A stretch of DNA of 64,000 nt, taken from assembly GCA_031266915.1 (NCBI GenBank), contig JAISAB010000002.1, positions 12,738-76,737 of the forward strand, given 5' to 3'. Below are positions 2,171 to 62,504 of this stretch, in pieces. Within the stretch, counting starts at the first letter, position 1, and the number at the start of each line of letters is the position of its first letter. Under the pieces are notes generated by a model. It saw only the letters and a program-made list of their open reading frames with translations. It searched no databases and had not been told where the DNA came from. This DNA comes from Rickettsiales bacterium. GTDB lineage: Bacteria; Pseudomonadota; Alphaproteobacteria; Rs-D84. Made by a program: the position numbers and the translations under genes.

Positions 2171-2175
2171 TCAAA

Positions 2176-2204: not shown

Positions 2205-2316
2205 TTAACAGTTAATAAAGAATAGAGAATAAAGAATAAATAGCTCAACTAATAGGAATCTACCAAACTGTAATGTAAATACACAATATGTAATCATTTA
2301 ATAAAAATCCATTATT

Positions 2317-4052: not shown

Positions 4053-4207
4053 CAAGAGAGAAGAATGTCGAAAAAGATACATTCCTATCACTTGAGTGAT
4101 CAATATAAAGCGGAATTTGCGGACATCACCGGGTGGCTTTTGCCGCGTTTAATAAAAACTTGATTTCAGCGGCGGTTAGTATATAATCCAAAGGCTTTTG
4201 AGAAAAC

Positions 4208-4250
4208 GCGGGTATAGTTCAAAGGCTAGAATGTCAGCCTTCCAAGCTGA
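4208..4250 (+). other. Truncated duplicate of the 5' half of tRNA-Gly (acceptor 5' strand, D-arm, anticodon stem-loop)
   Basis: 43 nt identical to 4341..4383 of the intact tRNA-Gly and then diverges; no T-arm. Confidence 0.7.
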
Positions 4251-4340: not shown

Positions 4341-4415
4341 GCGGGTATAGTTCAAAGGCTAGAATGTCAGCCTTCCAAGCTGAAAATGCGGGTTCGAGTC
4401 CCGCTACCCGCACCA
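4341..4415 (+). tRNA. tRNA-Gly (anticodon TCC), CCA encoded
   Basis: Cloverleaf GCGGGTA/TACCCGC acceptor, anticodon loop CTTCCAA, T-loop GGTTCGAGTCC, 3' CCA. Confidence 0.85.
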
Positions 4416-7143: not shown

Positions 7144-7989
7144 ATGAAACCGAATCACGAATCAAAAATCACAAATCACGACGAACGGCTGCCCGCCGGG
7201 CTGCATATCGTCGGAACGCCCATAGGAAATCTGTCGGATATGTCGCCGCGCGCAATCGATGTCCTGCGCCGCGCGGATTTAATTGCGTGCGAGGACACGC
7301 GTGTTTTCGGCAAGTTGGCCGCGCATTTCGACATAAAAACAAAAAAGGTGTCATTTCACGAGCATAACGAGCGCGCCGCGGTCGCAAACCTGACGGACAA
7401 AATTCAAAACGGCGCCGCCGTTGCCGTGGTCAGCGACGCGGGCATGCCCGGAATATCGGACCCGGGATTTCGCATTGCGCGCGAATGCCGCGCAGTGGGC
7501 CTGCCGGTGTTCGTGGTCCCAGGACCGGTGGCGGCGATTGCCGCGCTGGTGCTGTCGGGCTTTCCGACGGACCGGTTCACGTTCTGCGGATTCTTCGATG
7601 AAAAAAAAGCGCGCGACGACAACAGAATCCGCCACACAATTATTTACTACGAAAGTCCGAACCGCGTCATGGCGACCGTCGCGGCGCTGGCCCTGATTAT
7701 GCCCGAGCGACGCATAGCCATAGTGCGCGAAATCACAAAGATTCACGAAGAGACTATAATCGGCTATGCGGCGGAATTAATGCGCATAGAGCCGCCGCGC
7801 GGCGAAATCGTCATCGTAATCGAGCCTGCGCCGGAAACAAAGATGTCCGATGACGAAATATCCGAAATTGTAAATGATGTCGTCGCGGCGTCCACCAAGT
7901 CCGCGGCGGCAGATGTTGCCGCGCGCAGCGGGATTTCGAAAAAAGAAGCCTATAGGCGATTGATTAAAAAAGATGGGGGCACGCAATGA
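7144..7989 (+). CDS. rsmI: 16S rRNA (cytidine1402-2'-O)-methyltransferase RsmI
   Basis: LHIVGTPIGNLSDMSPRA…ACEDTR…VVSDAGMPGISDPG motifs; the N-terminal extension is encoded by a heptamer repeat. Confidence 0.85.
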   Translation: MKPNHESKITNHDERLPAGLHIVGTPIGNLSDMSPRAIDVLRRADLIACEDTRVFGKLAAHFDIKTKKVSFHEHNERAAVANLTDKIQNGAAVAVVSDAGMPGISDPGFRIARECRAVGLPVFVVPGPVAAIAALVLSGFPTDRFTFCGFFDEKKARDDNRIRHTIIYYESPNRVMATVAALALIMPERRIAIVREITKIHEETIIGYAAELMRIEPPRGEIVIVIEPAPETKMSDDEISEIVNDVVAASTKSAAADVAARSGISKKEAYRRLIKKDGGTQ

Positions 7990-11329: not shown

Positions 11330-11437
11330 AAACACTAGTGTATAGTTAATAGTCATTAGTCAGTAGTCATTAGTGAATGTGTCGCGCCTTTGGCGCGATG
11401 ACTTTATTAACTATAGACTATTGACTGTGCACTATCG
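11330..11437. repeat. TAGTNNN-heptad long hairpin element with central GC hairpin (gtgtcgcgcctttggcgcgatgac)
   Basis: Arms tagtcat/tagtcag/tagtcat/tagtgaa and their reverse complements. Confidence 0.7.
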
Positions 11438-11695: not shown

Positions 11696-11872
11696 ATTTC
11701 AAACCTCGCTTTTCGTTCAGTTAAAAACCACCAAAATTTGGTGGTTGGAGGTTAAGAACTATAAATCAGTATAGCGTGCTTATTTTGCGGCAAGCCGCAT
11801 TATTCACAACCCTCCAACCTGATAAGTTGGAGGATTTTTTCGTCCCCGCGGACGCTGATTTCAGAGGTTCTT
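11696..11872 (-). promoter_or_regulatory. Conserved structured 5' leader (attenuator/riboswitch-like), subtype 1
   Basis: Gene-sense: hairpin CCTCCAAC/GGTTGGAGG; linker GAATAATGCGG; AACCTCCAACC; terminator CCACC-N-GGTGG-UUUUU; RBS; ATG. Confidence 0.65.
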
Positions 11873-13769: not shown

Positions 13770-13914
13770 AATATATAATTCCTAATTGCTAATCATGGAT
13801 TCCTGATTTATAATATCTGTTGTCCAATATAAAAACAATAACAAATTCCCACCATGAATAGACATGCACGGGAATAACCTTAAGGGACGCCCGCCTGGCG
13901 CGGGCGCGGAAAAA

Positions 13915-17390: not shown

Positions 17391-18716
17391 CTATTTCCCC
17401 AAACACAGTTGCCCGAACGCCGCATCCGCGATTTCGTCCGCGCCGATGACGCCCAATATCCTGCCGACGGCGTCAGCCGCGGCGCGCGCGTGTTCTGCGA
17501 ATATATCGTAATCGGTAATCGGTAATCGGTAATCCGACAGGGCGGACCGCAATTCATCGGCGGCGGTTTCCAGCAGTCCGCGCGTTCGTTCATTCACGGC
17601 GATGTCGGATTCCGCGCCATCCAGCATCGCGTGCATTTTTTGCTTAATCGCGTCCAGCAGTTCAGGAATACCGTCGCCGGTAAGGGCGGAGGCATGAATG
17701 GATGATGGATGATGGATAATGGATGACGGGTCGATTAAATCGGATTTGTTGATAACAATAATCTCGTTATCTTTGGCCGCTTCATTCAACATTCCACACT
17801 CAACATTCAACACTTTTATAATCAAATCGGCGTTTTCGATTTCCGCATGCGCGCGCTGGATGCCGATGTTTTCAATCGCGTCGTTCGATTCGCGGATGCC
17901 GGCCGTGTCGGACAGATTGACCAGGTATCCGTCTATGTCCAGTTCCGCGTCGACCACGTCGCGCGTCGTTCCGGGAATGTCTGACACGATGGCGCGCGCA
18001 TGGCCGACCAGTCTGTTGAACAAAGACGATTTGCCGACGTTGGTTTCACCCGTAAAAACGATATTGAAACCGCCGCGGACGGCGCGCGCCGCCGCATAGC
18101 CCGATAACGCGCCGCGGATGTCCGCATGCAGTTTCTTTGTTTGCGCAAATAATTTCTCGCCGATGTTTTCCGGCAATTCGTCGGAGGCATAATCCAAAAT
18201 CGCGGCAGCGTACGCGGCGATTTCCACCATTTGGCTGCGCCATGATTCATAGACGGAACTATCGCCGCCCGTCATGGATTTCAGGGCAAGCATGCGCTGG
18301 CGGTCCGTGCGCGCATCCAGCAGCGCCGCCAGGCCATCGACCGCCGGCAAATCCATTTTATTGTTGTAAAAGGCGCGGCGGGAAAACTCGCCGGGCTGGG
18401 CTATGCGCATTCCATGTGTGCGCAGATGTTCGAATATTTTCTCGATAACGGCCGACGCCCCGTGGCAATGGATTTCGACGACGTCTTCGCCGGTGAACGA
18501 ATTCGGCGCGCGAAAATAAATCGCGATAATTTGGTCAATCAAAGCGCCGCTGTCGTCGCGCAGGTCGGTCAGATAGGCATGGCGCGGAATAATGGATGAT
18601 GGATAATGGATGATGGATGACGGGTTGATTTGGCCGCTGATGCGGATGACGGCGACGCCGGATTTTCCCAGGCCCGATGATAATGCAAAGATTGCGTCGC
18701 CGGTTTCTCGGTTCAT
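17391..18716 (-). CDS. mnmE: tRNA modification GTPase MnmE (TrmE), carrying three in-frame heptamer-repeat insertions
   Basis: G-domain GETNVGKSSLFN, DTAGIRE, NKSDL; C-terminal …CLGK. Confidence 0.85.
   Translation of the reverse strand: MNRETGDAIFALSSGLGKSGVAVIRISGQINPSSIIHYPSSIIPRHAYLTDLRDDSGALIDQIIAIYFRAPNSFTGEDVVEIHCHGASAVIEKIFEHLRTHGMRIAQPGEFSRRAFYNNKMDLPAVDGLAALLDARTDRQRMLALKSMTGGDSSVYESWRSQMVEIAAYAAAILDYASDELPENIGEKLFAQTKKLHADIRGALSGYAAARAVRGGFNIVFTGETNVGKSSLFNRLVGHARAIVSDIPGTTRDVVDAELDIDGYLVNLSDTAGIRESNDAIENIGIQRAHAEIENADLIIKVLNVECGMLNEAAKDNEIIVINKSDLIDPSSIIHHPSSIHASALTGDGIPELLDAIKQKMHAMLDGAESDIAVNERTRGLLETAADELRSALSDYRLPITDYDIFAEHARAAADAVGRILGVIGADEIADAAFGQLCLGK
17512..17535. repeat. 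GGTAATC heptamer tandem repeat (×4) inside the mnmE CDS
   Basis: Seen directly; encodes …DYRLPITDYD… without breaking the ORF. Confidence 0.7.
17696..17728. repeat. TGGATGA/TGGATAA heptamer tandem repeat inside the mnmE CDS (encodes PSSIIH-type repeats)
   Basis: Seen directly; related copies at 18592..18621 and 56727..56830. Confidence 0.7.
18592..18621. repeat. Second TGGATGA heptamer repeat tract inside mnmE
   Basis: aatggatgatggataatggatgatggatga. Confidence 0.7.
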
Positions 18717-20638: not shown

Positions 20639-21124
20639 ATGACGCGCATTTTGGGGATTGACCCCGGGCTTTTGCACACGGGATGGTCTGTGATTGATTC
20701 GGCCGGCAACGCGCGGGCCTATGTCGCCAGCGGCGTGATTCTGCCGCCAAAGACCGAGGAGCTGGCCGTGCGCCTGGCATTTATTTTCCGCGAAGTGTCG
20801 AAATTGCTGGATATATGGAAACCTGACGAATGCTCGGTCGAAATCATATTTGTGAACAAGAATCCGAAAACGACGCTGGTTCTGGGCCAGGCGCGCGCGG
20901 CCGCGCTGATTGCCGTCGCGGACAAGGTTATCCCGGTTTTCGAGTACGAGCCGAACAAGATAAAAAAAGCGCTGAGCGGCGCGGGCCACGCCGACAAGGA
21001 ACAGATTTATAAAATGGTGAAGCTGCTGCTGCCGGTGGCCAATCCGAAAACGTCGGACGAAAGCGACGCGATTGCCATCGCGCTGGCGCATAGTAATATG
21101 AGCAGGGTAATAGTTAGTAAATAG
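20639..21124 (+). CDS. ruvC: Crossover junction endodeoxyribonuclease RuvC
   Basis: MTRILGIDPGLLHTGWSV…; catalytic D/E pattern; …AIAIALAH… C-terminal motif. Confidence 0.85.
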   Translation: MTRILGIDPGLLHTGWSVIDSAGNARAYVASGVILPPKTEELAVRLAFIFREVSKLLDIWKPDECSVEIIFVNKNPKTTLVLGQARAAALIAVADKVIPVFEYEPNKIKKALSGAGHADKEQIYKMVKLLLPVANPKTSDESDAIAIALAHSNMSRVIVSK

Positions 21125-21212
21125 TGATTAGTGCTTAGTTGATAGTGCATAGTTAATTAGTTCACTAATCACTATAAACTATTCACTATACACTACCAAC
21201 TATTTGTTTTTC
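21104..21212. repeat. TAGTNNN-heptad hairpin element between convergent ruvC and the 21211 gene
   Basis: tagtgat tagtgct tagttga tagtgca tagttaa … cactaat cactata aactatt cactata. Confidence 0.7.
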
Positions 21213-21609
21213 AGTTTCCGCACAGCGTGTGCGTGCCGGACGAATCGCGGACCTGGATGCATCCGTTTTGAAACCATATCTTTGCGCGTCCGGCCGGGGC
21301 CGCGGCCGATGGTTCCGATGTCTTGACGGTGTCGAAACGCGCGTCGTCGCCGGCCGCGACGGTGCCTGTATCCGTACCGACGGGAATCCGCGCGATACCT
21401 AATGTTCCACTTGTTATATTCGCCGCATTCGTCTGGTCCAAGTTCTGAACGTTACCGAGGCCGACCTGGGCCGCCGTCACGTTATGCGGATTGTCAGTTC
21501 GCGCGGTGTGCGCGTCGACATAGCTCTTGCCGGCAATTTCCGCCAATGCCGGCGTCGCGGCAAAAAAACATAATAAAAACATAATTCGTTTTTTCATATT
21601 CACAGCCAT
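21211..21609 (-). CDS. Secreted tail-fibre-like protein, short paralog (signal peptide + 'EIAGKSYVD…DNPHNVTAAQVGLGNVQN…' N-module + small Cys C-terminus)
   Basis: N-module about 80% nucleotide-identical to the start of the upstream gene 21600..22475; motifs recalled from phage tail-fibre N-terminal domains. Confidence 0.55.
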   Translation of the reverse strand: MAVNMKKRIMFLLCFFAATPALAEIAGKSYVDAHTARTDNPHNVTAAQVGLGNVQNLDQTNAANITSGTLGIARIPVGTDTGTVAAGDDARFDTVKTSEPSAAAPAGRAKIWFQNGCIQVRDSSGTHTLCGN

Positions 21610-22475
21610 ATGTCCGACAGCATATTTATCATGTCGCCGCCGGACAGGTAATAGACTTCGTCATTGCAGCTGTTGACGCAATTGGTATAGCTGTTGCCGC
21701 CAAGCTGGTTCCAGTTTGAATTTGTCGGGTAATACCATCGGGACGTGCGGCCGTATTTGTCCGTTGCGCGAATCCAGCAATATCTGCGGGCGTGGTATTC
21801 CATAGTCTGGTCAATCGCGACTTCTTCGATAACGCGTCCGGTGCCGCCGGGCCGCGTGGTCGACGAGCATGTCGCGACCAGGAAAAATTTCTGGCCCAGA
21901 TGCGCCGCCAGCGCCCCGGCGCACAAATTCGACGTGCAGCTTTTGCCGCAATACTCGCCCCGATACAAACTAACGCTTACCAAGGTCCCGTTCGGCCCCA
22001 TTACCAATCCGGCGGTTTCGCCCGCGACGCCGCACATCAGTCCCAGCTCGTGTTTGCTGACGTAATCGACCGGCTGTCCGGCGCCGTTTTCGCACAGGGC
22101 GGGGGTCGTCACGCCGCCGCTGCGAACATAAAGGCATCCGTTTTCATACCATACCTTATCGCGGCCGTCGGCGGGAAGGCGCCAGGGCTCGGCCAATTCG
22201 ACGGTGTCGAACCGTGCGTCGTCGCCGGCCAAGACAGTGTTTTCATTTGTTCCAATGGGAATTCGCGCGGCATCCAATATGCCGGCGGTTATGTTCGCCG
22301 CGTTCGTCTGGTCCAAATTCTGGACGTTTCCCAGACCGACTTGGGTCGCCGTCACGCTATGCGGATTATCCGTGCGCGCGGCGTGCGCGTCGATGTACGC
22401 GTTGCCGGCGACATCAGCCCTGGCGTTTGCAACGCATGCGATTATGCAAATAAGACCGGCGGCGATGGATTTCAT
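21600..22475 (-). CDS. Secreted tail-fibre-like protein with Cys-rich C-terminal domain (long paralog)
   Basis: Signal peptide MKSIAAGLICIIACVANARA; same N-module as 21211; ATG at 22475 chosen (ORF tool start 22505 is GTG). Confidence 0.6.
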   Translation of the reverse strand: MKSIAAGLICIIACVANARADVAGNAYIDAHAARTDNPHSVTATQVGLGNVQNLDQTNAANITAGILDAARIPIGTNENTVLAGDDARFDTVELAEPWRLPADGRDKVWYENGCLYVRSGGVTTPALCENGAGQPVDYVSKHELGLMCGVAGETAGLVMGPNGTLVSVSLYRGEYCGKSCTSNLCAGALAAHLGQKFFLVATCSSTTRPGGTGRVIEEVAIDQTMEYHARRYCWIRATDKYGRTSRWYYPTNSNWNQLGGNSYTNCVNSCNDEVYYLSGGDMINMLSDIWL

Positions 22476-22665
22476 TTTTAACCTGTTTGACACAAAGCCA
22501 CCCACAGCGAACGCAAGGGTGGTTGGAGGTTAAAGACTATAATTTTCAGAAAATAGCGGGCTTATTCGATATATTCGCCGCCCTCCAACCGATGGTTGGA
22601 GGTTTTTATCGTCCCCGCGGACGCTGAAAATTAAGAGGTCTTTACGCCCCGCCGCAGGCCTTTGC
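22476..22665 (-). promoter_or_regulatory. Conserved structured 5' leader, subtype 1 (as 11696..11872)
   Basis: Hairpin AACCTCCAACC-atc-GGTTGGAGG; linker CGAATATATCGAATAAGC; AACCTCCAACC; hairpin CCACCC-N-GGGTGG; shared distal module cgtccccgcggacgctga…agaggtc. Confidence 0.65.
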
Positions 22666-22719
22666 CGCCCGCGACAAATATAGTTTAGCAAAAACGAGAA
22701 TGTAAATCAATAGGTTCGT

Positions 22720-22835
22720 GAAACCGTGATACGTGACACGAAATACGTAATACGAAATTGGCACAATAATGATTATATCGCACGATTTACGTATCACGAG
22801 TCACGTATTTCGTATTACGGCCTGCCGGATTCCTT
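22720..22835. repeat. Inverted repeat built from CGTGATA/CGTAATA-type heptads (about 30-bp arms, about 40-bp spacer)
   Basis: cgtgatacgtgacacgaaatacgtaatacg … cgtatcacgagtcacgtatttcgtattacg. Confidence 0.6.
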
Positions 22836-22919
22836 TCCTGTGATTTTCCCCTGCGCGTTTTGATAAAATACCAGGGTCATGACTCAATGACTTCAAACGC
22901 ATAACCAAAAGGATTCATT

Positions 22920-23216
22920 ATGAAAGATATGCCAAAAGACCAAATGGAACGCATCATGCACAAGTTGTATCACAAACGCAACTTTCTGCTGCGCGCGTTC
23001 GTAATCAACCTGGTTCTGATAATAGCGGTGTGGGGACTGTCCATGACGGATTTCTATGCGAATATGGCGGGACACTTTATGCACTGTCCGGCGGCGCAGG
23101 CGGAAACGTATACCATGGATTTGCTGGGCGCGTGGAAAATCGCGGGCGTTCTGTTCTTCCTGGTGCCTGCGCTGGCCGCATGGTGGGAACTGCATGCATG
23201 CCGGAAACGCCAATAG
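22920..23216 (+). CDS. Small hypothetical membrane protein (2 transmembrane helices)
   Basis: Two hydrophobic helices; intact ORF with upstream AT-rich promoter region. Confidence 0.45.
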   Translation: MKDMPKDQMERIMHKLYHKRNFLLRAFVINLVLIIAVWGLSMTDFYANMAGHFMHCPAAQAETYTMDLLGAWKIAGVLFFLVPALAAWWELHACRKRQ

Positions 23217-23312
23217 TTATTAGTGCATAGTGATTAGTGCTTAGTTTATAGTACATAGTTAAAATTTACTAAACACTAAGCACTATAAACTATGCACTAC
23301 TCACTAATGACT
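23214..23312. repeat. TAGTNNN-heptad hairpin element (7 heptads per arm) between convergent genes
   Basis: tagttat tagtgca tagtgat tagtgct tagttta tagtaca tagttaa | tactaaa cactaag cactata aactatg cactact cactaat gactatt. Confidence 0.75.
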
Positions 23313-23637
23313 ATTTTCTTATCGTCACCTTTGCCACGGCGTCATAGCCGAAGTATTTGTTTATCTTTGCCGCGATGTCGTCTTTCATATAGGATAATTG
23401 CAGCGCGAACGCCGGATTCGCGGCGCGCACGGCGATATTGAATTTCTTGTCGCGGGTCTTGGTTATCGCGGCCAGCCGCGCAATCGACGCGATGTCGCCG
23501 CCCATGATTTCATCCCAGCGATTGCTCAAATCAGCGTCTGATGCGCGGACGCCGAACAGCCGCATCAATCCCCCGAACGTCGACGCGATGGTCTGGGGGC
23601 GGGCAGTGCGTTTGTTAAGATTAACAGGATTGGCCAT
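23311..23637 (-). CDS. DUF721/DciA-like protein (putative helicase-loader family)
   Basis: …RWDEIMGGDIASIARLAAI…FNIAVRAANPAFALQLSYMKDDIAAKINKYFG…VKVTIRK fits the DUF721 pattern. Confidence 0.5.
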   Translation of the reverse strand: MANPVNLNKRTARPQTIASTFGGLMRLFGVRASDADLSNRWDEIMGGDIASIARLAAITKTRDKKFNIAVRAANPAFALQLSYMKDDIAAKINKYFGYDAVAKVTIRK

Positions 23638-25437: not shown

Positions 25438-25462
25438 AAAACCGGCGAAAGCCGGTTTTTTA
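25434..25462. terminator. Bidirectional Rho-independent terminator (aaaaaaaccggcgaaagccggtttttt)
   Basis: Perfect hairpin flanked by A- and T-runs. Confidence 0.8.
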
Positions 25463-25554
25463 AATAGCAAATATCAAATAGCAATTTGGTGCAGAATTGG
25501 GCTATAACACCATAAACGGCACCCCATTTGCTATTTGATATTTGCTAATTGCTA

Positions 25555-25720
25555 TTTTTCTTCTGGACACGGGCGTCACAAAGGCGCACAATGCCATCAC
25601 AGGACCGCTAATCCAAACCATCCTTGGATTGTACATAGTTCCCGTTTTCAAAAATCCCGCATTTCCGCCGTCTCTTATTTCCCATTTATTGCCTAATCTA
25701 AACCATGGTTTTTATATCAT
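25555..25720 (+). promoter_or_regulatory. 165-bp duplicated promoter/5'-UTR block (second copy 63805..63965) containing TTATTGCCTAATCTAAACCATGGTTTTTATATC (-35/-10-like)
   Basis: About 90% identical to 63805..63965; the TTGCCT-N17-TATAT motif is also at 44290 and 44395; upstream of a secreted tail-fibre-like gene. Confidence 0.55.
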
Positions 25721-25743: not shown

Positions 25744-26385
25744 ATGAACAGAATAATTTCCAAGTTATCACGTGTGTTATTATGTGTGGCGCTTATCGCG
25801 TTATTTGCACCCATGTCGGCCCGGGCCGAAATCGCGTCTAAGTCCTATGTAGATAGTCTGGCGATGCCGAACGGTGACGATTACTTGCAAAAAGCCGGCG
25901 GCACGATGACCGGTGAAATCGCGATGGGCGGAAATAAAATAGCAGGTTTGGGCGCGCCGACGGACGGCGACGATGCGACGACCAAGGACTATGTTGATAA
26001 TCTGGCCGCGGCCGGCGGAGGGACCATCGGCGGCGGTTCCGTCCCATCGTGGGCCGCGCTGAACGGCGAAGACTGGGCGGACAGCGGCTGGGGCGTCAAA
26101 TGGGTTGTCGATAACGGAACATATATGGTTGACGGCGTCGGCACATGCCTGTCGACAGATAGCAGAAGCGGCATCCTACCCAGCACATTCGGTTACGGCC
26201 CGAACTGCTGGTGCAGGGTCGAAGGAATAAACAATACGCGCGTTTTGGGCGCCTGGGTGTTCAAGCATACTGAAAGCGGCGGCTATGAAGATTGTTATGC
26301 GACCTGCGCGTCAAGATGCGCCAATTGCGTACGCGTAGGCTCGTCCGATGGATGCAGCCGCGCCGCGTTGTTCACTGCGCCATGA
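25744..26385 (+). CDS. Secreted tail-fibre-like protein ('EIASKSYVD…GGTMTGEI…KDYVDN' N-terminus) with Cys-rich C-terminus
   Basis: Signal peptide MNRIISKLSRVLLCVALIALFAPMSARA; motifs recalled from phage tail-fibre/collar N-termini; C-terminal CWC…CYATCASRCANC. Confidence 0.55.
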   Translation: MNRIISKLSRVLLCVALIALFAPMSARAEIASKSYVDSLAMPNGDDYLQKAGGTMTGEIAMGGNKIAGLGAPTDGDDATTKDYVDNLAAAGGGTIGGGSVPSWAALNGEDWADSGWGVKWVVDNGTYMVDGVGTCLSTDSRSGILPSTFGYGPNCWCRVEGINNTRVLGAWVFKHTESGGYEDCYATCASRCANCVRVGSSDGCSRAALFTAP

Positions 26386-26389
26386 TAAT

Positions 26390-26605
26390 AAATAATAAAG
26401 AATAGATAATAAAGAATAAAAATATGTTCGGTCTAATTTCCCCTCCTATGGAGGGGTGGCGCGCGGATGCGCGACGGGGTGGTTAGAGGTTTCGAGATTA
26501 AATTTTGATTATCCAACCACCTCCCGGTCTTCGACCGTACTCCTCCAAAGGAGGAGAACTTAGACCGAACATATTTTTATTCTTTATTATTTATTCATTA
26601 AAAAG
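26390..26605. mobile_element. MITE-like non-coding element with terminal inverted repeats of about 30 bp (ataataaagaataaaaatatgttcggtctaa … ttagaccgaacatatttttattctttattat) enclosing several GC hairpins
   Basis: Terminal inverted repeats seen directly; a solo repeat-like sequence (aataaagaatagagaataaagaataaa) occurs at 2213..2245 next to the low-GC island. Confidence 0.55.
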
Positions 26606-37889: not shown

Positions 37890-37990
37890 TTTCTATGGGC
37901 GCCTGCTGGTTGTTGGCTTGCTCATGTACCTGTTTGTACACTACGCTCGCCAACAACTGCGCATTCGCCTCATATAAATTAATTTTTGCC
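37887..37990 (+). repeat. Post-stop element family B copy (terminal inverted repeat AAATTAATTTCTATGG…CCTCATATAAATTAATTTTT; stem gttgttggc/gccaacaac; core TCATGTAC-CTGTTT-GTACACT)
   Basis: Seen directly. Confidence 0.7.
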
Positions 37991-38082
37991 CAACGGACAG
38001 GAATGTTGTTTTTCGCGGTTTACCACTACCCTGTCTTCACGCTTCGCGTGAATCCACCCCTTCGCCAAGCGAAGGGGATTTA

Positions 38083-40438: not shown

Positions 40439-40482
40439 TTCAAAAATCCTCCGGATTTTTTAATTTATAAGTTATAAAGGAT

Positions 40483-40833
40483 AAGTTATAACTTTTTAAC
40501 CTTTTTTATAATCGATGTCAGAATCTTTTCCAATTCTACGCAATCCTTGTAAATATCATCAAACTGTTTCTTTGTAATAAAACCAGACTTTTGCAACAGC
40601 CGCAGCCAAAACAGTGTTTAGGAACATTCGCGCTGCGATATTTCAAGCTTTGCAACAAAATCCCTGTCGCTTGATGCATGCACCGCTTCCGCCGCATTCG
40701 CACCAATGCTTGTGCCTGAGCGAAAAATCTGTTTCGAAATAATGAACTCTTTTTTATTATTAAGATATTTAAAGAGTTTTATTATTCTTAAGGCGAAATC
40801 TTCGCTTTTTTGCAAAATCAGACTCTCGGCCAT
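40483..40833 (-). pseudogene. Four-helix-bundle ('23S rRNA intervening sequence') protein interrupted by an in-frame TAA
   Basis: …GTSIGANAAEA…KLEISQRECS*TLFWLRLLQKSGFITKKQFDDIYKDCVELEKIL… continuous in one frame across the stop at 40615..40617; low-GC region. Confidence 0.55.
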
Positions 40834-40881
40834 ATTATAACTTATCCCTTATAACTTATAATTGGTTTGACAGCTTCGCTG

Positions 40882-44167: not shown

Positions 44168-44262
44168 TCATTAGTCAGTAGTCTATAGTCAATTAGTTAA
44201 TAAAGTCGTCGGCTCCGCCGACACATTCACTAGTGACTATTGACTAATGACTATTCACTAGC
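44160..44262. repeat. TAGTNNN-heptad hairpin element with central GC hairpin (gtcgtcggctccgccgacac)
   Basis: agtgaatagtcattagtcagtagtctatagtcaattagtt … cactagtgactattgactaatgactattcactag. Confidence 0.7.
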
Positions 44263-47003: not shown

Positions 47004-47122
47004 AATAGTCAATAGTCTATAGTCGTTAGTTATTAGTGAAGGTGTCGCGCAACCTGTCCACCGAAGCCTTGGCGAAGGTGGAAGCGCGACGACTTTATTA
47101 ACTATTGACTAATAACTATTTC
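47004..47122. repeat. TAGTNNN-heptad hairpin element with extended central GC hairpin (gtgtcgcgc…ccaccgaagccttggcgaaggtgg…gcgcgacgac)
   Basis: The central hairpin is related to that of 11330..11437. Confidence 0.7.
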
Positions 47123-47659: not shown

Positions 47660-48631
47660 TTATAACTTCCTCCGCGCCAGCGGATGGTGCTGTTCGACGG
47701 TGTCCCGCAGTTTCTGGGGCAGGACGTGCGTGTATATCTGCGTGGTGGAAATATCCTCGTGCCCCAGCATGGTCTGAATCGCGCGCAGGTTCGCGCCGCC
47801 CGCCAGCAGATGCGACGCGAACGAATGCCGCAGGACGTGCGGGCTGACGCGATTCGGGTCGATTCCGGCCAGGACCGTGCACTTTTTCAATATCTTGAAA
47901 AATCCGTCGCGGGTTATGTGACCCGTCTTGCTGTTTGATGGAAAAACATATTTTGAGGTCGCAGAGCGCAGAGCACAGAGCGCAGGTTTCGCCGCTTCGC
48001 GGCAGAGCGAAGAGCGCAGGTCGCAGGTAGAAGGTGTTGATAATGACGAACCACCTTCGCTCTGCGTTCTGCGACCTTCCACCTGTTGCGCATCCATCCA
48101 CTTGCCCAGCGCGCGCTGGGCGGATTCGTGCATCGGGACCAGACGTTCCTTGGCGCCCTTGCCGTGAATCAGCAACTTGTCGCCCAAGACGGCGGTAACG
48201 GGCAGCTCGCACAGCTCGGACACGCGCAAACCCGACGCGTACAGCAATTCCAGCATGGCCCGCAGGCGCAGTGAATTTTTAATATCGCCGGCGCTGGATA
48301 TTAGCAGCTCGATTTCGTCGACCGACAGGAATTTCGGCAACGTTTTCTGGCGCTTGGGCAATTCCAAGCCAATCGACGGATTGGCATGGATGATTTTTTC
48401 CAACATCAGGAATTTGTAAAATCCGCGCAGAGAGCTGGCCTTGCGCGCAACCGACGACGCGCGGCAGGGCAGGGACGACAGATACGACTGCAGCGCCTCG
48501 GCGGTCGTGGCCGTCAAATCGCCCAGATGATTCTGCGCGTGCGACAGGTCGCTGCCATAGCTTTCCAGCGTTTTTCTGCTGCGGCCTTTTTCGGCCGACA
48601 GGGCCTCTAAAAATATCTCGATACAATTCAT
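47660..48631 (-). CDS. XerC/XerD-family tyrosine recombinase carrying an in-frame palindromic-element insertion
   Basis: …HVLRHSFASHLLAGGANLRAIQTMLGHEDISTTQIYTHV… catalytic R-H-R-Y box; start at MNCIEIF (ATG 48631). Confidence 0.8.
   Translation of the reverse strand: MNCIEIFLEALSAEKGRSRKTLESYGSDLSHAQNHLGDLTATTAEALQSYLSSLPCRASSVARKASSLRGFYKFLMLEKIIHANPSIGLELPKRQKTLPKFLSVDEIELLISSAGDIKNSLRLRAMLELLYASGLRVSELCELPVTAVLGDKLLIHGKGAKERLVPMHESAQRALGKWMDAQQVEGRRTQSEGGSSLSTPSTCDLRSSLCREAAKPALCALRSATSKYVFPSNSKTGHITRDGFFKILKKCTVLAGIDPNRVSPHVLRHSFASHLLAGGANLRAIQTMLGHEDISTTQIYTHVLPQKLRDTVEQHHPLARRKL
47946..48079 (+). repeat. Second copy of the palindromic element of about 130 bp (terminal inverted repeat AGGTCGCAG…CTGCGACCT), in-frame in xerC/D in the opposite orientation relative to the host gene
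   Basis: About 85-90% identical to 10217..10340; adds about 45 aa (…QQVEGRRTQSEGGSSLSTPSTCDLRSSLCREAAKPALCALRSATS…). Confidence 0.8.
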
Positions 48632-48775
48632 CGGAACAATACGATTTCGGTTGTATTCTGCGTCGGCGCGAACGAGACAATCATCAGCACCACAACGATG
48701 GCGACGACCGTCCAAACGATAATTTTGTTGCGCGTCGTGTTTTTCTTCTTCAGTGGCATATCGGATTCCTTTTGC

Positions 48776-50410: not shown

Positions 50411-50465
50411 CTAAAGATTTCTGATTTTTTTAATCCCAAATCAGAAATCATAAATCAGAAATAAC

Positions 50466-55861: not shown

Positions 55862-56728
55862 ATGCAATTGAAATTTATGAAGTACAGAAAGCTGTCGTAC
55901 TGGGTTTCCGGCATTTTGGTGGCGCTTAGCGTTCTGTCACTGGCGACGCGCGGATTGAATTACGGCATCGATTTCGCGGGCGGCATTTCGATGGAGGTCA
56001 CGCCAATCTCGGCCGACTACACAATCGACAAGATGCGCCACGACTTGGCCGAATTTGGCCCAGAACTGCAATCGGTGGACAACAACAAATCCATCTTGGT
56101 GCGCGTCGGCCTGCCCAAGGGCGCCACGGACGAGCAGCAGAACCAGCGCGTCCGCGAAATTAAAGAAATCTTGGGCGAAAAAGTTCAATACTCCCAGGTT
56201 CAAATCGTCGGTCCGAAAATCGGCGGCGAACTGGTCCGCGGCGGCATATGGGCGATTCTGATTTCATTCATACTGATGTCGGTTTATATCTGGATTCGAT
56301 ACAAGGGCGGATATGCGGTGGGCTCGTTCGTGTCGCTGGTGCTGGACTTTGTTTTGATGTTCGGATTCTTCTCGGTCGCGGGACTGGAATTCAACCAGAC
56401 GTCCATCGCGGTCATCTTGATGGGTATCGGATATTCCATCAACGACAAGGTCGTGAATTATGACCGCATCGACGAGAACATCAGAAGATACCACAAGATG
56501 CCGATGACGGATTTAATCGACCTGTCGGTGAACGAGATGATGCGCCGGACAATCATGACCTCTGTTTCCACCATCCTGGCCATGATAGGGCTGTACTTGT
56601 TCGGCGGCGGCATGCTGCGGGATTTCTCGGTCGCGATGACGTTCGCGGTCGTTATGGGCACGCTGACAAGCATCTATATATCCAACGTCGTGCTGTATCA
56701 CTTTAACCTGCGCGAGACGGACTATTAA
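55862..56728 (+). CDS. secF: Protein translocase subunit SecF
   Basis: …GIDFAGGISMEV… SecF signature and 6 transmembrane segments. Confidence 0.9.
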   Translation: MQLKFMKYRKLSYWVSGILVALSVLSLATRGLNYGIDFAGGISMEVTPISADYTIDKMRHDLAEFGPELQSVDNNKSILVRVGLPKGATDEQQNQRVREIKEILGEKVQYSQVQIVGPKIGGELVRGGIWAILISFILMSVYIWIRYKGGYAVGSFVSLVLDFVLMFGFFSVAGLEFNQTSIAVILMGIGYSINDKVVNYDRIDENIRRYHKMPMTDLIDLSVNEMMRRTIMTSVSTILAMIGLYLFGGGMLRDFSVAMTFAVVMGTLTSIYISNVVLYHFNLRETDY

Positions 56729-56745
56729 TGGATGAGGGATAAGGG

Positions 56746-58284
56746 ATGATGGGATTTAAAAAAATATTCGACATAAAGATATTATTTGCGTTGATGTCTT
56801 TTCTGCCATCATCCATCATTTATCATCCATTGTTCGCAACCGATTTGTTCCATGAAGATGAAACCGTCCAGGCTGGGCTGAATGTGTTCGCGGTCTCGGA
56901 TGTCTTCGCCGATATATATCAAAAGCTGGACGGGATGTCCTGGGGCGGCAAGACCATCAACGTCGCCATCGAATCGGTGGAAAACATTCACCCTGACGCG
57001 CATATTGCCGCAACGGACGAGCGCGTCGTCCTGGTCTGGCGCGATTCGATTGTCTCGAATTATCCGCGGCCCGCGGCCGGCGACTGGCAGGGATTCGGCC
57101 AGATTACGACCGCGCTGATTGTGAAACTGCGCCAGCTGATTCCCGAATTCGGTCGCGCGTCGGAAAGCGCCATGTACCAAACGGTGGTCGACAGCCTGAT
57201 GCGCGGCGTGGATGAAAACGGCCGGTATATCTATTCGCGCGCGGCCGAAATCGACGAAGATGGTCGGATTCTGACCAGCGCCGGGTTGCAGGGTGGACGC
57301 GACAACCGCGGCAATTTCCGCGTGACCGGCATTTACAAGGATTCACCCGCGGACGTCGGTGGCGTCAAAGCCGGCGATTTGATTACGAAAATGAACGGCG
57401 CGCGCGTCGCGGATATGTCAGAAGCGGATGTGGCGTCCGTGCTGTCGGGCTTTAATTCCGGCACTTTGAAACTGACGGTTCTGGCCCCCGGCGGCGAAAA
57501 GCAGGTAGTTCTACGCCGTGCGACAATCGTTCTGGCGGATGCGGACATCGTTCATCGCGCCGATGCCGACAGCGGCGCGGGATTGCTGGAAATCGTCGTG
57601 CACAAGGTATCGAACGCCTCGGTTTCCATCGTCAACGAAGCCTTGGCAAAATATCCCGATGTGACGGGAATCGTTCTGGACCTGCGCGGCGCGATTGGCG
57701 ACGACGAGCGTGCGGCCGCGAAACTATCCGGCCTGTTTATCGGTCAGGTTCCGGTCATGCGCATTGTCGAGACGGCCCGCGCCGAGGTCGAAATCGTCCC
57801 GGGCGCCGGCAAAGTCGCCGACGCGCCGATTGTCGTTCTAATATCTAACACGACGCGCGGCACGGCCGAGGCCATCGCCGCCGCGTTTTATGAAAACAAT
57901 CGCGGCGTCTTGGTCGGAACGCCGACCGCCGGCAGCGCGCGCATCGCGACAAAAATCGATTTGGAAAACGGCGGCGCGCTGGAATTGCTGAACAAGTCCG
58001 TCAAAACCGGCCGCGGCAGCATAATCGACGGCCGCGGAATTTTCCCACTGGTATGCCTGTCCAATATCCGTTCGAACGAACAGCAGGGCGCCTTTTTCCT
58101 GAACGTGCTGAACGGCGATTTCAAGGCCCAGGACTTTAACGGAAATATGAATCTGACGCCGGACGCCATCCGCAAGGGATGCCCGACCATCACCAGCGGC
58201 GCGGACGAGGATGCGCTGTCCGCCGCCGTTTCGGTTCAGATACTGACGGATAGGAAGATTTATAATAAGCTTATAAGTGAATGA
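56746..58284 (+). CDS. Carboxy-terminal-processing (S41) peptidase with PDZ domain; the N-terminus contains TGGATGA-type heptamer repeats
   Basis: PDZ (…GVKAGDLITKMNGARV…) and S41 motifs (…GIVLDLRGA…, …VLISNTTRGTAEAIAAAF…). Confidence 0.7.
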   Translation: MMGFKKIFDIKILFALMSFLPSSIIYHPLFATDLFHEDETVQAGLNVFAVSDVFADIYQKLDGMSWGGKTINVAIESVENIHPDAHIAATDERVVLVWRDSIVSNYPRPAAGDWQGFGQITTALIVKLRQLIPEFGRASESAMYQTVVDSLMRGVDENGRYIYSRAAEIDEDGRILTSAGLQGGRDNRGNFRVTGIYKDSPADVGGVKAGDLITKMNGARVADMSEADVASVLSGFNSGTLKLTVLAPGGEKQVVLRRATIVLADADIVHRADADSGAGLLEIVVHKVSNASVSIVNEALAKYPDVTGIVLDLRGAIGDDERAAAKLSGLFIGQVPVMRIVETARAEVEIVPGAGKVADAPIVVLISNTTRGTAEAIAAAFYENNRGVLVGTPTAGSARIATKIDLENGGALELLNKSVKTGRGSIIDGRGIFPLVCLSNIRSNEQQGAFFLNVLNGDFKAQDFNGNMNLTPDAIRKGCPTITSGADEDALSAAVSVQILTDRKIYNKLISE

Positions 58285-59099: not shown

Positions 59100-59360
59100 A
59101 TGGAAGTAATGCCAATGGATAAAATCATAGACAATTTGCATACGACCCCGATGGGGCAGGCGCGCGTGCGCCGCAATATCGGCATTGCGAATGACGCGGA
59201 TGTTATCGATTGGGCAAGGTCCGTGATTGCGGCGGCGCCGGAATCGGCGATTGTCCGGCGGGGCAAGAACTGGTATATCGCGCATGACAAATGCATTCTG
59301 ACCGTCAACGCCCGCAGCCACACATTAATAACCGCGCATAAGGAAAAGGAATCAAAATGA
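59100..59360 (+). CDS. Small hypothetical protein (86 aa)
   Basis: Intact ORF; no confident domain. Confidence 0.35.
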   Translation: MEVMPMDKIIDNLHTTPMGQARVRRNIGIANDADVIDWARSVIAAAPESAIVRRGKNWYIAHDKCILTVNARSHTLITAHKEKESK

Positions 59361-59932
59361 AAAACGCGATAATCATACACGGTATACTAGAGACGCGTGA
59401 AGAATTGTTTGATTCGCCCGTCAGTGCGTCCAATTTTTCTTGGCTGCCGGGGGTTCAAAGACAGTTGGTTCAACGTGGGATTTTGACACAGACCCCCGAA
59501 ATGCCCACGCCGTATATGCCTGATGTTGATTTTGATGGATGGGTTGCGGTTTTCGAACAATTTAACATAGGCAGGGACACATTATTGATAGGACATTCAG
59601 CCGGCGGCGGATTCCTGTTGAAATATTTGTCTTTGAATCCGCAAATTAATCCGGGCCGCTTGATATTGGTCGCGCCGTGGCTGGATATAGATGCCGAGCA
59701 TCCGACATTTTTTCAGAATTTTGACTTGGATATAGATTTGCCGAAACGTATAAACAGAATAGATGTTCTCTATTCGACAGACGATATGAATATAATTATC
59801 AAGTCAATTGATAAAATAAAAAAAGTTTATGGCAATCGGATAAATTATCATGAATTTTCCGACAGAGGTCATTTTGATGAAATTGATACAGGCAAAGATT
59901 TTCCGGAATTGCTGGATGTCATAAATCAATAG
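59357..59932 (+). CDS. Alpha/beta-hydrolase-fold serine hydrolase (RBBP9/YdeN-like), low GC
   Basis: GHSAGG nucleophile elbow; about 190 aa; about 40% GC. Confidence 0.55.
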   Translation: MKNAIIIHGILETREELFDSPVSASNFSWLPGVQRQLVQRGILTQTPEMPTPYMPDVDFDGWVAVFEQFNIGRDTLLIGHSAGGGFLLKYLSLNPQINPGRLILVAPWLDIDAEHPTFFQNFDLDIDLPKRINRIDVLYSTDDMNIIIKSIDKIKKVYGNRINYHEFSDRGHFDEIDTGKDFPELLDVINQ

Positions 59933-60240
59933 TCATTAGTCTATAGTGTTTAGTTGATAGTGCATAGTACCCCTGCTTTCGCAGGGGTGACGAGTCTTGA
60001 GTTTTTGGGACCAAAAAGATACATTCCTGTCAATTGAGCATAAATCCCCCACCGGCGCCAACCAACAATCTCCCTGAATTTTCATCGGCAACAAGTTGCC
60101 GGAAAATTCTCCCCCTCTTTAAACAAGAGGGGCAGGTGTCTGATGCAACTAATCACTATATATACTATGCACTACTCACTATCGACTACTTACTACAGAC
60201 TAATGACTATAGACTACTGACTAACCACTGACACTAACGC
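59928..60240. repeat. Composite element: TAGTNNN-heptad arms (59930..59972 and 60148..60240) flanking about 180 bp of GC hairpins
   Basis: Internal hairpins cccctgctttcgcagggg, cggcaacaagttgccg, ccccctctttaaacaagagggg; MITE-like architecture. Confidence 0.6.
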
Positions 60241-60275
60241 TTACACTGTCCGCTTTTTTATGATAAAATGCGCCC

Positions 60276-62504
60276 ATGGCCGATAATTCGAAATTCTTGC
60301 CGGAACGCGTTTCCGGCGCGTTAAAAAGTCTGGGCGTCCGCGCGGCGGGGGCTGCTTTGTCGCTGTTGGGCGTTTGGCTTGTCTTTGCGCTGGTGTTCGG
60401 CGACCCATATCTGAACGGATTCGCCGCCGCCGGCGGATTTGGAAAACAAAGCCTGGTCGGCAATATCGTCGGATTTATCCGCTACGGCATCGGCTTTGTG
60501 CCGGCATTGTTTCTGTTCCTGTGCCTGGCGCGGACTGGTTTATCGTTTATGCTGAACCGGCCGGCAGAACGCGCGCCGGAATATAATTTATTGCGCGGCT
60601 TTATCGCGGTGTGCGCGGGCGCGGCCGGATTGGGCGCGATGGCGCCATCAGGCACCCTGGGCGGACTGGCGGGCAGCATTGTTGCGAATGACATAGGCGG
60701 AATACTGGGCGGCTGGACAGTCCTGGCGGGGATTCTGTTCTTCGGCGTTTTTGTGCTGATAGCGTGCCGGCTGCTGAATATAAAGCTGAGCGATTTGCGC
60801 GGCATTATCCGCGCAATCTTCAGGTCCGTCGTCTGGCTGCTGTCCGTGTTCCATCTAATCAAGCCGACCGCTGCGCCGAACCAAGACGACGAGGAATACG
60901 AGTACGACGCCGCCACCGACGCTGTGCCCGCAAAAAAAAGCAAAAGGCAAAAGGCCGAGGTTCCGGCAACAAAGCAACCACCGCGTCGGCGAATCACGAG
61001 TCACGAATCACGAGTCACGAACGAATACGAATTGCCGCCGCCGGAATTCCTGGAAAAATCCGTGATGGGCAAGACTTCGATTACGCCGGATCTAAAGCGC
61101 AACGCCGGCGCCCTGGAAACACATTTCGAGGAGTTCGGCGTATACGGACGCGTGATGGGAATCAAGCCGGGTCCCATCGTCACGCTGTATGAATTCCAGC
61201 CCGATTCCGGCGTCCGCATCGCCAAGGTCACCGATACCGTCAAGGACATGACGCGCGCGATGGCGACCGAAAACATCCGTATTGCACATATTCCGCGCAC
61301 CAACTATATCGGCGTTGAGATGGTGAATTTGAACCGCCAGACCCTGCGTTTCCAGTCACTGATAACCAATCCGTCGTTCATGAATTCCAAGTATCGGATA
61401 CCGCTGGCGCTGGGGGTGGACATCGGCGGAAATTCCATGTACTTTGATTTGGCCAGAATGCCGCACGTGCTGATTGCGGGACGCACGGGCTCGGGCAAGT
61501 CCGTGTTCGTGCAATCTATTATAATGTCCGTGCTGTATCACTTTACGCCGGACCGGTGCAAGCTGATGATTGTCGACCCAAAGGGCGTCGATTTTACGCT
61601 GTGGGACAACATACCGCATCTGGTAACGCCCGTTCTGACCGATCCGGCGTCTTCGGTGAACGCGCTGAAGTGGTCCGTGCGCGAAATGGAAGAGCGGTAT
61701 AAAAAACTGAAAGACCTGGGCGTCCAGAATATCGAGGGATACAACGACGCCGTCGCGAAGCTGCGCGCCGCCGGAAAACCGGTCACCAAGCAGATTGCCG
61801 TCGGCACCGACGAAGAGACCGGCGGCTTGATATTCGAGAACCAGGAAATCGATTTATCGGACATGCCGTATCTGGTCATTATTATCGACGAGGTCGCGGA
61901 CCTGATGTCCGTCGCGCGAAAAGAGGTCGAGGCCTGCGTCCAGCGCCTGGCGCAAAAGGCGCGCGCCGCCGGAATCCACCTGGTCGCGGCGACCCAGCGT
62001 CCGGACACGACCGTCATCACCGGCGTCATCAAGGCCAATTTCCCGACGCGCATATCGTTCCAGGCGCGCAGCAACATCGACAGCATGACCACATTGGGCG
62101 AGAAGGGCGCCGAGCAATTGCTGGCGTTCGGCGACATGCTGTTCAGCGAGGCCGGGCGCGTCCCCGTCCGCATCCACGGGTCGCTGATTGAAAATTCCGA
62201 AATCAACAAGGTGGCCGATTTCCTGCGCGCCCAGGGCGAGCCGACGTATGCCGCCGGCGTGACCGACGGAGACGGCGACGACGGATTCGCGGGCGGCGGC
62301 ATGCCGATGTCCAAGGGCGACAAGGATTCCGATTTGTACGAGCAGGCCAAGCAATACGTCGTGCGCGACAAAAAGCCGACGATTTCCTATATCCAGCGCC
62401 GGCTGGGCGTGGGCTATAACAAGGCCGCGGGCTTTATGGAACGCATGGAGGCCGAGGGCGTCGTCAGCCCGCCCGACGCCAACAACAAAAGGCAGATATT
62501 GTAA
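60276..62504 (+). CDS. ftsK: DNA translocase FtsK (with an in-frame CGAATCA/CGAGTCA heptamer tract in the linker)
   Basis: N-terminal transmembrane segments, Walker A GRTGSGKSV, DEVADLM, and a C-terminal winged-helix gamma domain. Confidence 0.9.
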   Translation: MADNSKFLPERVSGALKSLGVRAAGAALSLLGVWLVFALVFGDPYLNGFAAAGGFGKQSLVGNIVGFIRYGIGFVPALFLFLCLARTGLSFMLNRPAERAPEYNLLRGFIAVCAGAAGLGAMAPSGTLGGLAGSIVANDIGGILGGWTVLAGILFFGVFVLIACRLLNIKLSDLRGIIRAIFRSVVWLLSVFHLIKPTAAPNQDDEEYEYDAATDAVPAKKSKRQKAEVPATKQPPRRRITSHESRVTNEYELPPPEFLEKSVMGKTSITPDLKRNAGALETHFEEFGVYGRVMGIKPGPIVTLYEFQPDSGVRIAKVTDTVKDMTRAMATENIRIAHIPRTNYIGVEMVNLNRQTLRFQSLITNPSFMNSKYRIPLALGVDIGGNSMYFDLARMPHVLIAGRTGSGKSVFVQSIIMSVLYHFTPDRCKLMIVDPKGVDFTLWDNIPHLVTPVLTDPASSVNALKWSVREMEERYKKLKDLGVQNIEGYNDAVAKLRAAGKPVTKQIAVGTDEETGGLIFENQEIDLSDMPYLVIIIDEVADLMSVARKEVEACVQRLAQKARAAGIHLVAATQRPDTTVITGVIKANFPTRISFQARSNIDSMTTLGEKGAEQLLAFGDMLFSEAGRVPVRIHGSLIENSEINKVADFLRAQGEPTYAAGVTDGDGDDGFAGGGMPMSKGDKDSDLYEQAKQYVVRDKKPTISYIQRRLGVGYNKAAGFMERMEAEGVVSPPDANNKRQIL
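60990..61027. repeat. CGAATCA/CGAGTCA heptamer tandem tract inside the ftsK linker
   Basis: gaatcacgagtcacgaatcacgagtcacgaacgaatacg encodes …RRITSHESRVTNEYE…; related tracts at 7150..7185 and 37281..37306. Confidence 0.7.

Follow-up and report, generated by a model that had tools for sequence, protein, structure and literature searches.

A composite heptad-stem hairpin on the stop codon of a hydrolase gene upstream of ftsK in a Rickettsiales bacterium

We describe a composite repeat located between an alpha/beta-hydrolase gene and ftsK in the genome of a Rickettsiales bacterium (assembly GCA_031266915.1, contig JAISAB010000002.1). The analysed stretch of 64,000 nt, here called the window, covers positions 12,738 to 76,737 of this contig. 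The source is an uncultured alphaproteobacterium, and the names of isolate and samples point to the termite gut as its probable environment. The composite has two inverted arms made of the heptads TAGTnnn and nnnACTA, which enclose about 180 nt with three GC palindromes (59970-59987, 60086-60101 and 60111-60132). We found that 59930-60228 is a 299-bp lineage-specific insertion between the last sense codon and the former TGA stop of the hydrolase gene, and that its arms are true inverted partners from one repeat family. Nested insertion into the apex of a hairpin is the best reading of the composite: it is probably a single TAGT-family palindrome that was inserted on the stop codon, and its middle would be the debris of later events at the AT-rich apex rather than a payload.

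The composite and its insertion site

The composite and its downstream border have the following layout (positions are those of the window; L310 is a contig of a relative):

59930..59969, plus strand: left arm of six TAGTnnn heptads (59930-59968, plus A 59969); the first TAG, 59930-59932, is the present hydrolase stop codon
59970..60040, plus strand: solo right end of an IS1595-family MITE (miniature inverted-repeat transposable element), with a GC hairpin (59970-59987), TGACGAG, a small A/T hairpin (60002-60017) and the terminal repeat AAAAAGATACATTCCTGTCAATTGAGCA (60013-60040)
60041..60133, plus strand: unassigned stretch that holds the palindromes 60076-60109 (core CGGCAACAAGTTGCCG) and 60111-60132 (CCCCCTCTTTAAACAAGAGGGG)
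60134..60151, plus strand: AGGTGTCTGATGCAACTA, apparently collapsed from the GGTGTCGCGC...GCGCGAYGAC...AACTA hairpin at the apex of the sibling elements 11336, 47006 and 44158
60148..60228, plus strand: right arm of 11 nnnACTA heptads and one degenerate unit, pairing with the left arm
60229..60239, plus strand: ancestral sequence TGACACTAACG, outside the element and colinear with L310 1871-1881; the relic of the old hydrolase TGA stop is 60229-60231
60240..60269, plus strand: conserved ftsK promoter, outside and downstream of the element, with -35 CTTACA and extended -10 TGATAAAAT; the ftsK ATG is at 60276

The ACTA units of the right arm start at 60148, 60155, 60164, 60171 and so on to 60220, and the degenerate unit reaches 60228. 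The arms, with 6 units on the left and 11-12 on the right, are 78% complementary across 51 nt, and 202 nt lie between the paired parts. The palindrome 60086-60101 is lengthened by GAATTTTC/GAAAATTC to 60076-60109. For the whole composite region a fold of -105.5 kcal/mol was predicted (z = -8.5). An earlier inspection of the letters alone (the sequence-only reading) had described two heptad arms about 180 bp apart around three GC hairpins, spanning 59928-60240. This architecture is indeed present, with slightly corrected hairpin coordinates. The end of the span has to be placed at 60228, since 60229-60239 is ancestral sequence shared with L310.

The hydrolase gene (59357-59932) encodes a product 100% identical to NCBI LBJ73_00855; for the exact FtsK sequence no database record was found. 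The next-best match of the hydrolase has 62% identity. On L310 the hydrolase is 62% and FtsK 72% identical, and the gene order PAP2-DUF3781-hydrolase-ftsK is the same as in the window. The spacer between hydrolase and ftsK measures 44 bp in L310 and 343 bp in the window. The alignment is colinear to 59922 and resumes at 60229, so that TGACACTATCAC...TTTTTTATGATAAAATGGCCACATG of L310 aligns with TGACACTAACGC...TTTTTTATGATAAAATGCGCCCATG of the window, and the two hydrolases are equal in end position (..PELLQVILA* and ..PELLDVINQ*). In six relatives the PAP2 gene directly adjoins ftsK. Since L310 has the same gene order with only a 44-bp spacer, the whole composite is an insertion. Thus, the polymorphism between empty and filled sites on which the sequence-only reading had made its proposal depend does exist, with an orthologous empty site in L310.

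The ftsK promoter downstream of the insertion is conserved in L001-L003, L005-L007 and L310. In all relatives, 6 nt separate the end of its extended -10 motif from the ATG, which implies that the ftsK mRNA of this clade is leaderless or nearly leaderless. Terminator-like sites were absent from 59800-60400, and all three GC palindromes lack a following T run (a home-made terminator scan was too permissive for use). Rfam covariance models gave one chance-level match in 59850-60330 (E 1.8), no tRNA was found in the composite region and no rRNA in the window. As these Rfam and tRNA searches yielded nothing beyond that match, a known RNA or tRNA was rejected as an explanation.

The composite does not stem from an assembly error. 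In an independent assembly of run SRR14710922 (Logan), two contigs are identical to the window, L081 across 59860-60105 and L320 from 60085 onward, with an overlap of 21 nt inside the palindrome 60076-60109. The break of this assembly within the palindrome (60085-60105) is what a chimera of two loci joined there could produce. Such a chimera is, however, hardly credible, given the exact match of both contigs with their 21-nt overlap, the ancestral hydrolase-ftsK adjacency in L310, and the palindrome core CGGCAACAAGTTGCCG, which is single-copy in the window.

The TAGT family and the contents of its apices

The window contains at least 12 hairpins that follow the scheme (TAGTnnn)4-8, short apex, (nnnACTA)3-9, at positions 11336, 21115, 23214, 23649, 26703, 28066, 31258, 37325, 44158, 47006, 59930 and 63726. 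The pattern TAGTN3TAGTN3TAGTN3TAGT has 55 matches, compared to 0.00 expected from 100 shuffles. Simple copies have predicted folding z values of -4 to -11, and only the short degenerate copy 63726 is at z -2.2. The heptad units are drawn from a small vocabulary, and long runs of unit order are common to different loci. Compared with the left arm of 26703, that of the composite has 41/43 identical positions and one 7-nt indel. The inner part of the composite's right arm shares 36/39 positions with arms of elements 31258 and 23214; overall, the agreement with sibling arms is 92-95%, with indels of whole units. Arms from different copies can cross-pair at up to 43/46 positions.

The Tandem Repeats Finder (TRF) detected periods of 7, 14 and 21 in the heptad arrays at 69-82% match. 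In comparison with simple heptanucleotide tandem repeats (STRR or LSSR type, head-to-tail copies of one 7-nt unit), only TAGT is constant here, the arrays come in inverted pairs, and their unit order is common to several loci. Because unit order is shared, the copies are related by copying and not by independent growth, and because the differences between them are indels of whole units (7 or 21 nt), slippage remodels them afterwards. Comparing own-partner with cross-partner complementarity as proof of arm pairing was uninformative, as all arms share one vocabulary. The generic TAGT-heptad pattern was not diagnostic by itself either, since the matches listed in viral contigs included unrelated tandem repeats. 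The sense strand has the better predicted fold in 5/7 informative TAGT elements, and the composite and 63726 show the opposite; this asymmetry is not significant and was dropped as a sign of selection at the RNA level.

Several other copies can be compared with empty sites. L312, in which MltA is 81% identical, is colinear with the window over 20.6-32 kb and has neither TAGT-type nor inverted heptad arrays (TRF gave one 14-nt repeat of 2.1 copies). From MltA to DciA there are 3 bp in L312 and 104 nt in the window. From DciA to RuvC, L312 has 31 bp with a canonical bidirectional terminator, while the window has 2.1 kb with three ORFs (open reading frames) between two TAGT hairpins. A convergent GT2 pair overlaps by 20 bp in L312 and is separated by an 88-bp hairpin in the window. 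In L312, L311 and L314, TAGT elements are missing at MltA/DciA, DciA/RuvC, MFS/RecA and the GT2 pair. The 2.1-kb block (21115-23313), which is bracketed by two complete TAGT hairpins, has no Pfam match in its three ORFs and contains a CGTGA-heptad inverted pair at 22720-22815.

In at least 8/12 copies, the composite included, the upstream ORF stops on a TAG of the array. An array TAG substitutes for the stops of MltA and DciA, and at two further genes the array extends into the end of the coding region (RuvC, ..SRVIVSK* vs ..SRFLI*; GT2, ..KYINQ* vs ..KFIKPQDS*). Since 7 mod 3 = 1, a TAG is found in every frame after three units, and the mirror arm has the same property on the other strand. 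Consequently, an element that lands at a gene end always supplies a stop.

The space between the arms differs from copy to copy: it can be empty or contain a GC hairpin, one hairpin inside another or, in the composite, approximately 180 nt. The apex is empty in 31258 (TAGTGAAT-TAG-TTAACTA) and 37325 (TAGTGAAC-TAG-TTAACTA). It is filled in 11336, 47006 and 44158, following the scheme TAGTGAAK-[GTGTCG..GAYGAC]-TTTA-TTAACTA, and 47006 has a further hairpin nested within its apex hairpin. The small central GC hairpins with common ends, which were proposed from the letters alone, are borne out at adjusted coordinates (11379-11402, 44205-44224 in opposite orientation, and 47041-47093, extended), and all three have GTGTCG...GAYGAC ends. 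The comparison of arm-centre junctions suggested at that time yielded a junction common to these three copies, TAGTGAAK/GTGTCG...GAYGAC/TTTATTAACTA. The composite retains both flanks of this apex hairpin (AGGTGTC..GATGCAACTA) and resembles a hairpin of the GTGTC subfamily with an apex that was struck again and partly deleted. The GTGTCGCGC GC hairpin is also found outside heptad elements, at 12156 and 26637. We conclude that the apex is a repeated site of small insertions.

The part of the middle adjacent to the left arm, 71-77 nt, is by its similarity to other elements the solo, truncated terminus of an IS1595-family MITE. Positions 59969-60045 are 80% identical over 80 nt to 3980-3901 on the other strand (E 2.6e-14), and the last 26 nt of the segment recur at 4071-4096 and 38013-37982; these relatives in the window (3901-4100, 38013-37982) are all without heptad arms. 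A metagenome scan with AAAAANNNACATTCYTRTCNNTTG gave 106 stretches, about 15 of which, from a coherent sample set, are true homologs. Inverted motif pairs about 200 bp apart, that is, MITEs, are present in the window (3901-4100), L228 (631-843) and L231 (3492-3725). The composite segment aligns with MITE or insertion sequence (IS) ends in L240, L228, L231, L247, L260 and L273, with both ends in the case of the L240 IS, and an alignment of 14 ends includes it, starting at the GC hairpin and finishing with the terminus ..TTGAGCA at 60040.

The assignment to a family comes from L240, in which an element of 2281 bp (1294-3574) is delimited by the motif. This element has 26/28 terminal inverted repeats, and its 8-bp duplication, AATAATTA, is perfect. 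A target duplication of 8 bp is expected for the IS1595 family (ISfinder family traits). The 302-aa ORF of the L240 element matches DDE_Tnp_IS1595 (2.2e-17) and Zn_ribbon_IS1595, and in L208 the repeat stands next to a 70%-identical transposase N-terminus. Composite positions 59970-60040 thus resemble IS1595-family IS elements and MITEs in the terminal repeat ...AAAAAGRTACATTCYTGTCAGTTGAGCA, which bounds a transposase gene in L240, and differ from them in keeping one end only, without duplication. A 6/8 match between TAAATCAA (59922-59929) and TAAATCCC (60041-60048), around TAAATC, was considered as the target duplication of the MITE and judged coincidental, because ATMAATCAA/TAGTCATTAGT also ends element 31258. 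A role of the middle as a promoter or UP-element module was also considered, since AAAAAGATACATTCCTGTCAATTG is found four times in the window upstream of genes and pointing toward them. It was rejected: in L228 the motif abuts a stop codon as one of two inverted ends, in L240 it bounds the transposase gene, and the actual promoter of ftsK, downstream of the element, is conserved.

Some further observations concern these mobile elements. The region 3901-4100 is a degenerate full-length IS1595-type MITE with internal GC hairpins, located between tRNA genes and 2317-3822 (minus strand, an EcoRI-like methylase/T5orf172 fusion). The solo MITE end at 37975-38013 abuts the serS stop. Passengers of the L240 element are a 185-aa ORF without Pfam match and a 96-aa ORF with a weak Cas2-like match (E 0.004). 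Positions 4207-4249 are a perfect 43-nt duplicate of 4341-4383. The duplicate lies 134 nt upstream of the intact tRNA-Gly(TCC) gene and reproduces its 5' part up to and including the anticodon loop; it looks like an old integration or recombination scar.

Origin of the composite and alternative explanations

According to the reading we prefer, a TAGT hairpin would have been inserted first, at the hydrolase stop, and the first TAG of its array would have taken over as stop codon. Apex insertions and a deletion would have followed, leaving a one-ended, truncated IS1595 MITE, two unrelated GC palindromes and a collapsed remnant of the GTGTC...GAYGAC hairpin. In RNA reading through from the hydrolase gene, the arms could pair into a long-range stem that closes a loop of three hairpins. 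By analogy to the stems of intervening sequences (IVS) in 23S rRNA, such a stem may act in processing, in termination or in insulation before the ftsK promoter.

Several points weigh against this scenario. The composite was found in one genome only, and a species-level relative provides the nearest empty site; the composite may thus have been inserted in one step in a pre-formed state. The left MITE end was not found in 59900-60260, and an 8-bp duplication is not visible at the composite. About 93 nt lie between the MITE end and the right arm, and at least two further events are needed to account for them; a homolog of 60041-60133 was found neither in the window nor in any fetched contig. Further, the arms are unequal, as described above, and the predicted minus-strand fold of the composite is stronger than that of the plus strand (-124 vs -110 kcal/mol). 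Finally, a canonical terminator follows TAGT element 44158, implying that TAGT hairpins need not be terminators.

The sequence-only reading had proposed a MITE-like unit, in which the heptad arms are terminal inverted repeats recognised by a transposase and pick up and carry inserts. Much of its description holds. The arms are inverted (78% over 51 nt, and siblings fold as hairpins), all 299 bp are missing from the orthologous L310 site and other copies likewise show presence or absence at orthologous sites, variable centres stand between conserved arms, and the arm-centre junction is conserved in three copies. Moreover, arms of the same type surround an ORF between secA and dnaE in L321 and a 38-nt centre 3.4 kb on. 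However, neither the target duplications nor the cognate transposase that were to be looked for turned up: duplications are missing at the composite and at four other copies with empty-site comparisons, both at the boundaries defined by L310 and L312 and as direct repeats at the outer ends of 11 TAGT copies, and no transposase is encoded among the approximately 60 ORFs of the window, whose only recombinase is XerC/D-like (47660-48715). Nor is the IVP ORF (a 23S rRNA intervening sequence protein) between the similar arms of L321 a known transposase. The arm ends are ragged, with differing unit numbers and without defined termini, and no second copy of the composite was found. Since the supposed cargo is the end of a different transposon, a MITE found elsewhere without heptad arms, plus unrelated palindromes, nested insertion and decay fits better than a payload, and we regard the MITE-like unit as unlikely. 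Thus, arms that enclose variable inserts are valid as a description, whereas a MITE carrying cargo is not demonstrated.

Alternatively, two half-elements could have been joined by recombination between TAGT copies (by deletion, inversion or insertion of a gene block), with the middle being foreign or intergenic DNA caught between them. The similarity of TAGT copies is sufficient for recombination, as their cross-pairing to 43/46 indicates, and relative to L312 the 2.1-kb block between dciA and ruvC is indeed bracketed by two complete hairpins. Still, each arm of the composite is purely of one orientation, with no trace of a partner arm beside it; the inner end of the left arm corresponds to the apex position of sibling 26703, and the right junction retains the family apex motif AGGTGTC. 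This makes the joining of half-elements improbable. A similarly small chance is given to a decayed IVS-like cassette, in which an ORF for the four-helix-bundle protein S23p once stood between the arms and was later lost and overwritten. It draws on heptad-armed relatives carrying such ORFs, which are described next: the arms around a pseudogene at 40461-40861, conserved with their synteny in L315 and L317, and the TAGT-type arms around an intact ORF in L316 and L321. In the composite itself, tblastn with 120 IVP (S23p) proteins against 59900-60260 gave only matches in inconsistent frames with E of at least 0.016 (361-nt database), mostly in the heptad arm. An IVP remnant in the middle was therefore rejected as a candidate, and 71-77 nt of the middle are explained by the MITE end.

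The heptad-armed relatives are as follows. On the minus strand of the window, 27-nt arms of TAAGTTA units (40461-40491 and 40835-40861) surround a PF05635 pseudogene (E 1.2e-28) with an in-frame TAA where relatives have Glu. The arms and the synteny RNR-IVP-Cob(I)alamin adenosyltransferase are kept in L315 (1472-1874, 83% protein identity) and L317 (1473-1887, 70%). In L321 (10016-10440), and also in L316, secA stops at a TAG that opens the arm TAGTTAT TAGTTAT TATACC, and this arm is followed by an intact IVP ORF, the mirror arm and dnaE (L321 arms: TAGTTAT..TATACC / ATAACTAATAACTAA). After dnaE, at 13808-13906, the same arms enclose only 38 nt, 3.4 kb from the copy bearing the ORF. Heptad arms with and without the IVP ORF thus coexist, because L321 has both forms.

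Relation to known repeats and significance

The IVS of 23S rRNA are bounded by inverted repeats, excised by RNase III, and exist in forms with and without an ORF (PMC4990558). Heptad elements resemble them, for example the one in Coxiella burnetii (PMC4990558), in terminal inverted repeats pairing into a stem (of 28 bp in Coxiella), in a variable centre optionally encoding an S23p/PF05635 protein, in their sporadic, lineage-specific distribution, and in the ORF of the heptad-armed siblings (40461-40861, L315, L317, L321). The composite, too, has a stem of at least 20 bp around a variable centre. Unlike IVS, heptad elements are located on stop codons in the spacers of protein genes and not in 23S rRNA helices, and their stems are built of 7-nt units; the composite lies between the hydrolase gene and ftsK and contains no PF05635 ORF. 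It is tempting to speculate that heptad-stem palindromes are a distinct, IVS-like selfish class settling in the spacers of protein operons, on stop codons, the IVP-ORF versions being the full elements and the ORF-less TAGT hairpins their MITE-like derivatives. The parallel to IVS deserves attention; this reading of it has a low probability. Under this same doubtful reading, taken as a whole, the 7-nt units would ensure a stop in all frames and allow growth by slippage, the apex would be a landing pad or cargo bay, and the composite would be such an element caught with foreign DNA in the bay.

With MITEs and nested MITEs (Correia, Nezha and RPE-type), the TAGT elements have in common that they are short multicopy palindromes in intergenic regions or at gene ends, missing from orthologous sites in relatives and struck by other small elements. 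They differ in that neither a target duplication, fixed termini nor, among the ORFs of the window, a transposase-bearing partner was found for them, and in their arms, which have an internal period and vary in steps of whole units. Like the repetitive extragenic palindromes (REP, BIME, REPIN), they are abundant, located downstream of genes and targets of IS insertion, but their stems are much longer, AT-rich and heptad-built, and no RAYT gene is present in the 64-kb window.

Heptanucleotide repeats are known from other bacteria. TAACTGA occurs in Beggiatoaceae, Cyanobacteria and Bacteroidetes (PMC4679880), and in Geobacter metallireducens heptanucleotide sites form pairs on opposite strands, whose distance varies and which sometimes have IS elements close by (PMC2700814). 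The TAGT elements share with these repeats and the cyanobacterial STRR the 7-nt period, the intergenic location, the restriction to lineages, the presence of many families per genome and indels in 7-nt steps. They differ from them in fixing only 4/7 positions, in forming the complementary arms of one hairpin with a unit order common across loci, and in their position, which is on stop codons and not immediately before start codons. In the literature searched, we found no description of such a repeat type, in which hairpins with stems of heptad periodicity insert on stop codons and always bring a stop of their own.

Heptads of other kinds are frequent in the window. Inverted heptad pairs around a centre were also seen at 22720-22815, 25462-25557, 26385-26600 and 56726-56830, and contigs of related organisms contain pairs made of yet other heptads. 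The pair at 26385-26600 is itself composite, with AATAAAG-type arms and a perfect 19-bp inverted repeat (AAAAATATGTTCGGTCTAA) around approximately 140 nt of GC hairpins. Its centre includes a piece resembling an approximately 135-nt repeat at 11739-11872 and 22517-22642 (GGTGGTTGGAGGTTAAGAACTATAA...CCTCCAACC..GGTTGGAGG TTTTT..TCGTCCCCGCGGACGCTG), which has terminator-like hairpins and no Rfam match and could be a small RNA or another small mobile element. Inside coding regions, heptad arrays are found at 60990-61021, 9381-9411, 17508-17534, 17698-17726 and 18589-18620; the genes concerned encode the FtsK linker (CGAATCACGAGTCA x2.3), an AddB-like nuclease and MnmE, the last with two near-identical GGATAATGGATGACGGGTYGATT segments about 890 nt apart. 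Single, non-inverted arrays at 50438-50462 (AAATCAG x3.6 before mutL) and 7151-7181 stand directly upstream of, or just after, a start codon and resemble the TAACTGA repeats upstream of start codons in Beggiatoaceae.

In summary, the composite itself is a nested repeat, a piece of ordinary mobile-DNA archaeology that is moderately interesting. Its importance lies in being a precisely bounded insertion from a group of heptad-stem hairpins that land on stop codons and bring their own stop. Such elements rewrite the C-termini of proteins, as in RuvC and the GT2 gene, and break short-read assemblies. The sibling elements with the gene of the 23S IVS protein suggest that IVS-like elements are not confined to rRNA. 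Thus, heptad-stem elements offer a concrete system for two old questions, namely why heptanucleotide repeats fill some bacterial genomes and what the S23p/IVP proteins do.

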